Origin: Dehalococcoidia bacterium
GTDB taxonomy: Bacteria > Chloroflexota > Dehalococcoidia > Lucifugimonadales > UBA3495
DNA length: 64,000 bases
Reading direction: 5' to 3'
Assembly (NCBI GenBank): GCA_963663945.1
Contig: OY760687.1
Coordinates: 266,765 to 330,764, forward strand
Under the pieces are notes generated by a model that was not told the origin of the DNA, searched no databases, and worked only from the letters and a program-made list of their open reading frames with translations. Position numbers and translations under genes: made by a program. This document shows, piece by piece, positions 24,640-27,418 of this stretch (positions within the stretch are counted from its first letter, which is position 1; the number at the start of each line of letters is the position of its first letter).

Positions 24640-25794
24640 TCAGCTGCCGTTGAAGGACGGCATCACGTCCTGGGCAAACCGGGAGAGCTGGTCCTTGAAA
24701 ACCTCGCGGGGCATGCCCATGACCGAACCGAGGTTGACCCGCTCCACGCCGGGATAGCGCTCTTCGTCTTCCTTGAGCGCGTTGGCGATGTCGTCCGCCG
24801 AGCCGCAGAGCCACGCGCCGCTTTCCACCGCCTCTTCCAGCGTGGGGAGTTGCACGCCGCGGCGCAGACGGGGATTCGCCACGGCTTCGATCTGGTCCTG
24901 TTCCAGGCGCATCAGACCCAGCGGGGCGGCGAATTTCATCGCTTCCTCGAAGTAGGGTTTGGCCTCCTTGATGGCCTGTTCCCGGTTGGCGCCGATGAAG
25001 AAGCGGTAGCCCAACGCGATGTCCTCGCCCAAGGCCAGCTCGCGGCCGTATTTGGCGGCGGCCTCCTGGTACATGGTCAGCCGCTCGTGCCGCGCCGGTT
25101 CCGGCGTGTTGGCGACCATCGCCTTGATGCCGATGCGGGCCATGAAATCGACGCCCTTGGGGTTGCCGGACACCAGGGGCTGCCAGATGTCCACCGGCTG
25201 GCGCAGGGGTCGCGGGACGAGGCTCAGCTTCTCCAGGGTGTAGCCGCGATAGGGCACCTTGGCCGGTATCTGGTAGTGCTTGCCCTCGTGGGAGAATGCC
25301 TCTTCGTTGAACGCCTTGACCATGACCTCGATCTGCTCTTCGAACAGTTCGCGGTTGGCGTCGCCGTCGAACATCGGCGAGCCGAAGGTCTCAACCTCGC
25401 GGGAGTGGTAGCCGCGGCCCACGCCGAAGACGATGCGCCCGCCGGACAGGATGTCGGCCATGGCGAAGTCTTCCGCCAGGCGCAGCGGGTGCCACATGGG
25501 CGTGATGTTGAAGCCGCAGCCGTACTTGAGGCGCTTGGTGTTGCAGGCCAGGTACAGTCCCAGCATGATCAGGTTGGGGATGCACTCGTACCCTTCGGGC
25601 TGGAAGTGGTGCTCGGCCATCCAGAACTCGTCATAGCCGTTGTCCTCCAGGTGCCTGGAAATGTCCAGGGCCCAGTCGAACACCTCGGCCAACTGCTCGT
25701 TGGAGTACCAGCGGTCGTTGGCGGGAGTCCCTTCCAGCCCCAGGTCGTTGTCCACCACGTGGCCGGCGTAGGATGCGCTAAAGCTTTTGAACAT
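24640..25794 (-). CDS. LLM-class flavin-dependent oxidoreductase
   Basis: FWMAEHHFQ, WHPLRLAEDFAMADILSGGRIVFGVGRGY. Confidence 0.92.
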   Translation of the reverse strand: MFKSFSASYAGHVVDNDLGLEGTPANDRWYSNEQLAEVFDWALDISRHLEDNGYDEFWMAEHHFQPEGYECIPNLIMLGLYLACNTKRLKYGCGFNITPMWHPLRLAEDFAMADILSGGRIVFGVGRGYHSREVETFGSPMFDGDANRELFEEQIEVMVKAFNEEAFSHEGKHYQIPAKVPYRGYTLEKLSLVPRPLRQPVDIWQPLVSGNPKGVDFMARIGIKAMVANTPEPARHERLTMYQEAAAKYGRELALGEDIALGYRFFIGANREQAIKEAKPYFEEAMKFAAPLGLMRLEQDQIEAVANPRLRRGVQLPTLEEAVESGAWLCGSADDIANALKEDEERYPGVERVNLGSVMGMPREVFKDQLSRFAQDVMPSFNGS

Positions 25795-25957
25795 GATTCG
25801 GTTCCCTCGTTACGGTTTGCTCAACGGGATTCGTCAACTATCAATTGTACTGCATTTCGTTGCACCGCAGAGGCGGCGGCCCATGATGCCAGGGCTGGTG
25901 GAAAGCCCGTCCCGGCGGCAACTGTCAGAATCAGCAACTGTCTGGAAGGTCAAGGGG

Positions 25958-26958
25958 TTAGGGGGCAGCGGCAACAGGATTTTGCCAGGGGGCGTTGGAT
26001 TTGATGATGGCGTTGCAGAGGGTGAGCAGTTTGCGGATACAGGCGGTGAGGGCCACCTTCTGGGCCTTGCCGGCGGCCAGCAGACGCTCATAGCAGGCTC
26101 GGATGGCTGGGTTGCATCGGGTGGCCGCCAGGGTTGCCATGTACAAGTCGGCCCGCAACTTGCGCCGGCCGCCCCACACCGAGCGTTTGCCGCGCCATTG
26201 CCCGCTGTCCCGGTTGTAGGGAGCAACGTTGTAGGGAGCAACGCCAGCCAGGGCGGCGATCGCCTTGGGGCTGGCGTGTCCCAGCTCGGGCAGCTGGGCG
26301 ATCAGTGTGGAGACCAGGACCGGCCCCACGCCGGGGATGGAGCGCAGCAGTTTGGCTCGGGCTTGCCAGGGGGCGTGGTCTTGCAGCAGTGCGGCGATGT
26401 CCTGGTCCAGTTGGGCCACCTGCCTTCCCAGCAGCGCCAGGTCCAACAGCGCCAAGTGGTCGTCGATCTGGGCGACCACCAGTTCCGACGGCACCTGCCG
26501 CCGCCGGTTGCGCTCCTGGGTCTGCATGGCGACCAACTGACGGCGCCGAAACACCAGAGCGCGCAACTCCCGCTGGGTCGCGTCGGGCAGGGGGCGCACC
26601 GGCGGACGCAGCGCGGCCCCGAACTGGGCCAGTGCCTGGGCGTCCAGTCGGTCCGTCTTGGCCAGCCGTCGTAGCCCGGGCGAACTCCCGCACCTGGCGG
26701 GGATTGACCACCACTGCGGGCAGTCCGGCGGCGGCCAACTCCGCCACCAGCCGGGTTTCCAATCCCCCAGTGGCCTCTACGATCGGTGGCCTCCACGATG
26801 ACCCGCTGCGGCTCCAGCGGGATCAGCTCCGCCACCAACTCGCGCAGGCTGGCGTCGGTGTACTCCACACTCCAGGACCGGTCTGCCGGAAACGCTCAAC
26901 AATCCAGGCAGGCTTTGGACACGTCAATGCCGATGATGGTCATTGTTGAGGTGGTCAT
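25958..26958 (-). pseudogene. IS110 DEDD recombinase/transposase, frameshifted as assembled
   Basis: IGIDVSK, IVEATGG, VVNPRQVREFA, KTDRLDA, SIPGVG, DSGQWRG, KVALTACIRKLL spread over different frames. Confidence 0.88.
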
Positions 26959-27019
26959 TGTCCCAGTGGTCGTGATGTTTTACACTCCCCGTACCTTTGG
27001 TTCGGCATGGCCGGCCATT

Positions 27020-27170
27020 CCCGGACTACCTTGCCTTGCAATACGGGGTCTGGTCAGTCAGCCCCTCACAACTGTTCGGGTTAGCCAAGGGTGAACGACG
27101 CGGCGACCTTGCTGATTCACGGCTTCGCACAGCGAGCCCCAGAATTAACGGTCTGCCGCGTCGTTGGCTC
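27020..27170 (-). ncRNA. Putative bridge RNA in the IS left end
   Basis: Target loop closed by AACGACGCGGC/GCCGCGTCGTT with guides GTTAATTCT and GAATCAG; donor loop with guides ACAGTTGTG and TGCAAGG matching the element's own ends; RNA ends approximate. Confidence 0.8.
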
Positions 27171-27184
27171 CTTCAAGATACAAG

Positions 27185-27291
27185 GCTTTACGGGATTTTA
27201 TGATTGGACAGGATTGGAATATCTGCATGCCAGAACGGGTCCAATCCTGATAATCCCTAAATCTTGAAAATCCTGATTCTGACGATTTACG
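27185..27291 (-). repeat. Palindromic CAGGAT/ATCCTG repeat, copy A (interrupted by the IS; remainder at 25924-25932)
   Basis: Minus strand CGTAAATCGTCAGAATCAGGATTTTCAAGATTTAGGGATT...CCAATCCTGTCCAATCATAAAATCC closely matches copy B. Confidence 0.85.
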
Positions 27292-27418
27292 GGAGTGGGT
27301 ACGCATGAGCTATCCGTGCGCGGCGCTTCTGGCGTAACCCCGACCGCGTGGGTATGATGGCGGCACGCGGGACCGGCAGCGTCCGGCAGGCGCAGCAATC
27401 GGCTTTGGCGGGGGGCGG

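Follow-up and report, generated by a model that had tools for sequence, protein, structure and literature searches.

An IS110 element inserted in a host palindromic repeat

The DNA analyzed here is a stretch of 64,000 nucleotides (nt) from a Dehalococcoidia genome (contig OY760687.1, positions 266,765 to 330,764; hereafter the window), and it carries a decayed insertion sequence of the IS110 family, IS110 subgroup, on the minus strand at 25933..27184, with both CT cores inside this interval. Read on its own strand, the element opens with CT-TGTATCTTG and closes with ACAGTTG-CT (window 27184-25933). The sequence gives the left junction as GTAAAGC-CT-TGTAT (core 27184-27183) and the right junction as ACAGTTG-CT-GATTC (core 25934-25933). 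Between the core and the ancestral start codon, the non-coding left end measures 211 nt; the right end comprises 25 nt after the stop codon. A long left and a short right end are what the legend of Extended Data Fig. 10 in Durrant et al. (2024; PMC11208160) gives for the IS110 subgroup, the IS1111 arrangement being the opposite. The neighboring genes encode a luciferase-like monooxygenase (24640-25794, minus) and a protein of the nitroreductase family (27419-28204, plus). All IS110-subgroup traits that can be tested by sequence were found, save that Pfam does not recognize the broken N-terminal domain of this copy and that the circle-junction promoter is a putative one, and we consider it very probable that the region is a fossil insertion sequence of this subgroup that works, or once worked, like IS621.

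The element interrupts a repeat of the host. A BLAST search with the left flank found more than 50 copies in the 3.94-Mb genome, and the alignments all end exactly at the CT. The left part of the interrupted repeat lies at 27183..27310 (minus) and includes the left target GTAAAGC (27191-27185) and the core CT (27184-27183). On the other side, the right core CT (25934-25933) is followed by the remaining repeat arm with the right target GATTC and then TGAC (25924..25934, minus), and GATTCTGAC, downstream of the right CT, completes the repeat. The junction position is reached by 56 copies, three of which are occupied by the element and five of which are misaligned or divergent there; the remaining copies have the empty-site consensus G(T/C/A)AAATC-CT-G(A/C)TTC-TGAC with one CT. 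A single CT in empty sites and a CT at both junctions of the occupied site are the pattern of scarless insertion. An unoccupied copy, with the empty site GCAAATC-CT-GATTC, lies close by at 28842..28969 (plus; genome 295606-295733). Altogether, 28 complete units of the repeat were found. It forms an imperfect palindrome, about 110 bp long, GTCAGAATCAGGATTT...CAGGATTGG-loop-CCAATCCTG...AAATCCTGATTCTGAC, whose consensus folds with -82.7 kcal/mol. The target is the terminal arm of this palindrome, with one site at each end of every unit. AATCCTGATTC occurs 75 times in the genome, compared to 0.56 occurrences expected from composition, and AATCCTGCTTC occurs 21 times. The consensus GTTAATC-CT-GATTC, proposed in the original prediction made from the sequence, has no copy in the genome and has to be replaced by GTAAATC-CT-GATTC.

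Repeat ends are unevenly distributed: 75 of the 96 end motifs cluster towards the two ends of the contig, within ~0.8 Mb of its start and ~0.9 Mb of its end, and the repeat is rare mid-chromosome. Each repeat arm (for instance window 27183-27287 and 28842-28969) contains four GGATT(T)/AATCC motifs with a spacing of about 10 nt, and these may form an array bound by a protein. This repeat family also occurs, with another majority allele, in three related genomes (G001-G003).

The transposase gene (25958..26973, minus) is a pseudogene. In comparison to intact relatives, the ancestral start codon ATG, which the relatives keep, is changed to ACG (26973-26971), a TGG codon has become a TGA stop (26898-26896), and the frame is shifted by an insertion of 16 nt (~26793-26778) and by a loss of 2 nt (~26670). 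Two insertions of 15 nt (~26457-26443 and ~26243-26229) leave the frame intact. The C-terminal frame of 213 amino acids (25958-26599, minus) matches PF02371 (Transposase_20; E 2.5e-17, 63.5 bits, cut-off 21.3). Pfam reported no match in the two broken N-terminal frames of this copy; the motifs IGIDVSK and VIVEAT are still legible in them, and they align with residues 2-129 of P0001, an intact relative from a Dehalococcoidia genome (locus L010). Together, the three broken frames span residues 2-322 of P0001, which is 88% identical over the C-terminal part and carries both PF01548 (E 7e-21) and PF02371. Among recombinases of solved structure, P0001 is most similar to that of ISCro4 (9t56; E 7.8e-38, residues 12-322), and it also matches that of IS621 (8wt6; E 3.5e-35). 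A contig from the public run X14 (window 26495-27139) has neither the 16-nt insertion nor the 2-nt loss, and its codon at the position of the stop is TGG; since this contig is of the intact type, intact variants exist in other samples.

Four further pieces of the element were found in this genome: copy B, almost full-length; copy C, a 5' fragment; fragment D, made up of a middle and a 3' part; and fragment E, a stub of 73 nt (the window copy is referred to as copy A). An intact IS110 recombinase gene was not found in this genome. The region C1:871597-871869 (minus) was considered as a candidate and rejected, as it holds a remnant of 91 amino acids with no long open frame; it derives from a second, distant IS110-family transposase with 38% identity to P0001.

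Some variation was seen at the start of the transposase frame. The frame opens with a 15-nt tandem repeat (window 26920-26973, minus; ~2090-2190 in loci L009 and L011), the units of which encode MTTGT, each with an in-frame ATG, and vary in number from about one to six between copies. At locus L012, the frame is open further upstream, giving a stop-to-stop frame of 469 amino acids; some 1.4 kb beyond the right end of that element, a second copy is represented by a truncated left end (L012:4563-4699).

The predicted bridge RNA of the left end

The left end has the layout of a bridge RNA. The junctions, stems and guides described in the original prediction are all present in the sequence. A target-binding stem-loop at 27094..27165 (minus), detected by folding, RNAalifold and covariation, is closed by an exact basal stem of 11 bp between AACGACGCGGC (27165-27155) and GCCGCGTCGTT (27104-27094), followed by a second stem of GACC (27153-27150) and GGTC (27108-27105). 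The loop contains the left target guide GTTAATTCT (27149-27141, minus) and the right target guide GAATCAG (27118-27112, minus), with an inner hairpin between the guides. The donor-binding stem-loop (27028..27081, minus) has a GGGG/CCCC inner hairpin and a basal stem of ACCCG (27081-27077) with AAGGT (27032-27028); the latter stem is weakened in this copy by an A at 27031, where the relatives have G. Here, the left donor guide is ACAGTTGTG (27075-27067, minus) and the right donor guide is TGCAAGG (27040-27034, minus).

Folding of the left end, which the original prediction had proposed as a check, gave -76.1 kcal/mol for the single sequence (z = -2.72; one of 200 shuffles was equally good), and stem-loop 1 as well as the inner hairpin of stem-loop 2 were recovered. 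For the comparison between copies, a structure of 27 pairs was tested on an alignment of 16 left ends, taken from this genome and from four Dehalococcoidia groups of elements; it consists of the basal stem, second stem and inner hairpin of loop 1 and the basal stem and inner hairpin of loop 2. In this alignment, 94.5% of the cells are paired, compared to 27-49% with slid partners, and six pairs show double-sided changes. The covariation score was attained by none of 500 shuffles. In helix 1, 97.3% of the cells are paired and five of the 15 pairs are changed on both sides. RNAalifold additionally pairs CTTGTA, the first six bases of the element, with the right donor guide in all 16 sequences, which is the guide-donor complementarity itself.

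A covariance model, R1, was built from 13 relatives, leaving the window's copies out. It matches the window at 27174-27022 with 159.7 bits (E 1.2e-34), which locates the RNA to 27022..27174 (minus) with a predicted 5' end near 27169-27166. The model also matches full-length, just upstream of the transposase gene, in ten distant IS110 loci (33.9-49.7 bits) from Verrucomicrobiota, Actinomycetota, an Acidiferrales genome, Stenotrophomonas and Paracoccus. Relatives of group 4 (L024-L029, ~1961-2000) contain an extra hairpin of about 40 nt between the -10 box and the target-binding stem-loop.

An Rfam scan of the window found no bridge-RNA family; the sole notable match, on the opposite strand and below threshold, was to sX15. 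This model (RF02234) aligns end to end with window 27014-27173 (plus) at 37.8 bits (E 3.7e-4), so that the region is not a member of the family: the score is below the gathering threshold of 55 and the strand is opposite to the transposase. Conversely, R1 matches the sX15 type locus on the Xanthomonas plasmid pXCV183 with 52 bits on the minus strand (L048:1892-2034; sX15 coordinates from Table 1 of PMC3300014). The minus strand of pXCV183 reads there as an IS110 left end with two loops, followed by MNGIGIDVCKAKL, a truncated transposase start. sX15 is on the plus strand of pXCV183, and asX7, from the same study, is on the sense strand. Since the minus strand reads as an IS110 left end, sX15 is the antisense of a bridge-RNA remnant and no sense-strand relative of the RNA, and it is this antisense strand that the Rfam family appears to model. 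The hypothetical gene beside sX15 was considered as the source of the IS110 sequence and rejected, having no Pfam family; the IS110 start lies in intergenic DNA. In a literature search on sX15 and Xanthomonas, no paper concerned IS110 by its title.

The guides of the window copy were compared with its target. As originally claimed, GAATCAG, the right target guide, complements CT-GATTC exactly. The left guide of the family, GTTAATCCT (GTCAATCCT in two copies), matches GTAAATC-CT at eight of nine positions. The two mismatches and one wobble to the occupied site, which had been ascribed to tolerance or to drift, are indeed there; they have three separate causes. The wobble at guide position 7 results from a private C-to-T change at 27143, where C is found in each of the 18 other aligned copies. 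At target position 6, the mismatch is due to the occupied repeat, which has G where the empty sites have T, and the third discrepancy is a mismatch of the whole family at position 3. The variant AAAGC-CT is present at the left target of both occupied sites A (27191-27185) and B (C1:169449-169455), copy C reads AAATC, and AAAGC-CT-G(A/C)TTC is found in none of the 96 empty end motifs. One possibility is that the AAAGC variant blocks excision and thereby preserves the copy.

How often such matches arise by chance was determined with 200,000 mononucleotide shuffles of the left end of this copy. An exact 7-mer complementary to CTGATTC was found in 3,082 shuffles (1.5%). Combined with a 9-mer located 10-60 nt upstream that matches at least six of nine positions of the occupied left flank, it was found in 1,056 shuffles (0.5%), and combined with a 9-mer matching at least seven of nine positions of the host-repeat consensus in 110 shuffles (0.055%). 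Judged from the window alone, the case for bridge-RNA targeting is thus suggestive; it becomes strong when the relatives described below are added.

For the integrated state, a promoter scan of the minus strand gave no sigma-70-like site upstream of the RNA. Promoter-like hexamers are present at the two ends. The right donor TGTAT (27182-27178) overlaps a -10-like TATCTT (27180-27175), and this segment (27175..27182, minus) is invariant in all 16 aligned left ends; the right end (25935..25953, minus), conserved in relatives, contains a -35-like TTGACC (25953-25948) and the left donor ACAGTTG (25941-25935). In a circle, a spacing of 17 nt would separate the two hexamers, which every relative conserves and which together match the consensus at nine of 12 positions by our own count. 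The promoter of IS621 is described as being reconstituted from its right and left ends (Durrant et al., 2024; PMC11208160), and by analogy the hexamers would form a circle-junction promoter here. In the mechanism we propose, the element would be excised as a circle, joining TTGACC of the right end to TATCTT of the left end across the CT core, and the junction promoter would transcribe a bridge RNA of ~150-160 nt from the left end. Loop 1 would pair with the target, the 5' side having the same sense as G-N-N-AATC-CT and the 3' side, GAAUCAG, being complementary to CT-GATTC; loop 2 would pair with the joined ends of the element itself, ACAGTTG-CT-TGTAT. Strands would then be exchanged at the CT by the DEDD/serine recombinase. 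One contig of the RNA-seq library X16, 163 nt long, spans 27008-27168 and thereby nearly coincides with the predicted RNA. As it has G and not A at 27031, its source is an intact-type variant rather than this copy, and it gives a weak hint of a discrete bridge RNA. The four public runs were compared as contigs only, which give no information on where an RNA starts or ends, on its strand or on its level; gaps in the cover of RNA runs are uninformative, the X15 contigs lie mostly on the host repeat and possibly come from other copies, and the small-share runs X9-X13 and X18-X20 are uninformative as to habitat.

Guides and flanks among relatives

The guide-flank comparison suggested together with the original prediction was carried out on relatives. 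Ten distinct right-guide types from Dehalococcoidia, Verrucomicrobiota, Actinomycetota and Proteobacteria were compared with their own flanks, and seven were exact, one was exact over the five visible bases, one matched at six of seven positions and one did not fit. When the own guides were set against the own targets in a matrix, the diagonal values were 15, 15, 13 and 15 of 16, compared to 5-14 off the diagonal. In group 2, the right guide is GAAGCAG and all five copies are inserted at CT-GCTTC. Group 3 has the left guide CTCATCCT at the flank GCTCATC-CT (L021) and the right guide AGCTCAG at CT-GACCT (L022), and group 4 has the right guide GACAGAG and the left guide ATCCCCCCT at the flank ACCCCCC-CT-CTGTC. 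Donor ends are too conserved within the clade to allow for much donor covariation; the left donor guide of group 4 matches at nine of nine positions.

In the distant loci, the left donor guide served to place, independently, the first base beyond the right end. The right guide predicts the flank exactly in L041, L043, L033, L031 and L037, in L039 it does so after a register shift of 1 nt, and in L044 all five visible bases agree. On the left side, 6-7 nt of the flank agree with the left guide's 3' part in six of eight loci (L042, L031, L033, L044, L038 and L039); a TTGTAT-type left end was not found upstream in L037 and L046. The group-4 relatives aim at another host palindrome, ACCCCCC-CT-CTGTCAC...

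Within the related genomes, guide and repeat allele were compared. G001, the host of group 2, contains GCTTC 217 times and GATTC 31 times, and the guide is GAAGCAG. With the guide GAATCAG, the respective numbers are 33 and 90 in G002, 8 and 75 in G003, and 21 and 75 in the genome studied here. Thus, in the sister host a one-base change of the guide from GAATCAG to GAAGCAG follows the majority allele of the repeat.

Several observations weigh against targeting by a bridge RNA. The right flank of L046 does not fit the predicted guide, the match in L022 is 6/7, L013 and L030 are inserted at GCTTC despite a GAATCAG guide, L021 has no right flank because its right end is truncated, and a 7-nt donor-guide seed located no right end in L038 or L042. 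The covariation groups are few and related, so that the counts are not independent events, and the effective sequence number in R1 is only 1.52. In every copy of groups 1 and 2, left-guide position 3 has T or C where the target has A; the exact site encoded by the guide has no copy in the genome, and the guide never matches its target perfectly. By analogy with position 4 of IS621, this position-3 mismatch is probably a tolerated one. On the donor side, the left donor guide ends in TG, which mismatches the CT core in groups 1-3, and in group 2 the guide ACCGTTG faces its own end ACAGTTG. Finally, the X16 contig is the sole hint of a discrete RNA.

Two other readings of the left-end RNA were considered. 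If the left-end hairpins merely formed the 5' untranslated region of the transposase mRNA, serving translational control, the matches to the flanks would be coincidental. Seen in isolation, the match of this copy to its target is only moderately unlikely (0.5% of the shuffles for the occupied site), and the target is partly palindromic, which inflates self-complementarity. However, chance would hardly produce guides that covary with their flanks over ten right-guide types from several phyla and track the allele of the host repeat, nor stems that stay paired while the loops vary, and we regard this explanation as extremely improbable. Domestication of the RNA into a small RNA of the host, the class in which sX15 was once catalogued, acting on transcripts that carry the repeat, would fit a guide whose complement occurs about 96 times in the genome as well as the homologous Xanthomonas locus, which yields small RNAs on both strands according to Table 1 of PMC3300014. 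Yet guide and stem are drifting in the copies of this genome, no promoter was found in the integrated state and no expression of this copy was seen in the public-run contigs, making a host function very unlikely. Taken together, the recombinase match, the compensatory changes, the guide-flank covariation and the palindromic target support the IS621-like bridge-RNA reading.

Mobility of dead copies and comparison with known systems

Copies A and B are 123 kb apart, in different repeat copies and with different right flanks. They have the TGA stop, the +16 nt frameshift and one of the +15 nt insertions in common, and fragment D has the TGA as well. Since the identity between A and B is only 95.6%, the common lesions are old. 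A segmental duplication as the origin of both copies was rejected: their left flanks are 0.848 identical, compared to 0.857-0.875 for each against empty repeats, and are therefore no more alike than random good repeat pairs. As the recombinase is broken in every copy, and the guide and one stem are drifting, the window copy is immobile unless a recombinase acts in trans.

Either mobilization of a dead element in trans or gene conversion would account for the lesions common to both copies. In the former case the copy is a non-autonomous element whose ends and RNA can be mobilized by a recombinase supplied in trans, and A and B arose after the gene had died; old lesions in two different repeat copies 123 kb apart, and left flanks arguing against duplication, speak for this, and a preprint on ISPpu10 reports a trans-acting recombinase and mobilization in trans (bioRxiv 10.64898/2026.03.19.712850). 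Gene conversion between the copies would, however, spread lesions too, the genome now has no intact recombinase, the guide and the donor-loop stem of this copy have since drifted, and two or three copies represent very few events. We therefore hold mobilization in trans to be possible but somewhat doubtful. The wider scenario is equally tentative: bridge RNA and host repeat may co-evolve, with a single U-to-G change having retargeted the element to the majority GCTTC of the sister host, and the dead copies here may have kept spreading in trans before the lineage died out.

The bridge recombination system itself is already known, and what is new is the bacterial lineage of this example. The original claim of a new instance in another lineage therefore stands for the lineage; the element is dead here, and its live relatives are elsewhere. 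No paper mentioning both IS110 and Dehalococcoidia was found in the literature; the supplementary orthologue lists of Durrant et al. may already include these elements. The DNA is present in public runs labelled sponge metagenome, and the analysis extends bridge recombination to probably sponge-associated Dehalococcoidia (Chloroflexota). Being a pseudogene, the window copy has no direct use as a tool, and the interest lies in its live relatives and in the natural one-base retargeting: close live elements whose guides are one base apart and matched to the repeat allele of the host are natural material, and the constitutive mismatch between guide and target as well as the long hairpin target are test cases for mismatch tolerance and for the role of target structure. 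The data also suggest that the Rfam family sX15 should be re-read as antisense to an IS110 bridge RNA.

Durrant et al. (2024; PMC11208160) have already predicted the bridge-RNA family in thousands of orthologues, and the element is best compared with IS621 of E. coli as described there. Both have a recombinase with DEDD and Transposase_20 domains (here shown on the intact relative), a left-end bridge RNA (here a predicted one) with the target loop preceding the donor loop, a CT core and a palindromic host repeat as target, and in both a natural one-base mismatch between guide and target is tolerated, at position 4 in IS621 and, as it seems, at position 3 here. The putative promoter of the present element would be split between the ends, as it is in IS621. 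Unlike IS621, the present copy is dead, its host is one that relatives place, probably, in the Dehalococcoidia, its target GTAAATC-CT-GATTC ends a hairpin repeat of ~110 bp instead of a repetitive extragenic palindromic (REP) element of ~35 bp, and its right guide covers the core plus 5 nt (7 nt), compared to the core plus 2 in the 11-bp target of IS621. The likeness to ISCro4 concerns protein comparison only. ISPpu9 and ISPpu10 of Pseudomonas putida are likewise described as IS110 elements in repeated palindromic intergenic sequences (PMC12288879; bioRxiv 10.64898/2026.03.19.712850), and for ISPpu10 the preprint reports a stem-loop in the target in addition to the trans action of the recombinase; they differ from the Dehalococcoidia element in phylum and in target sequence.

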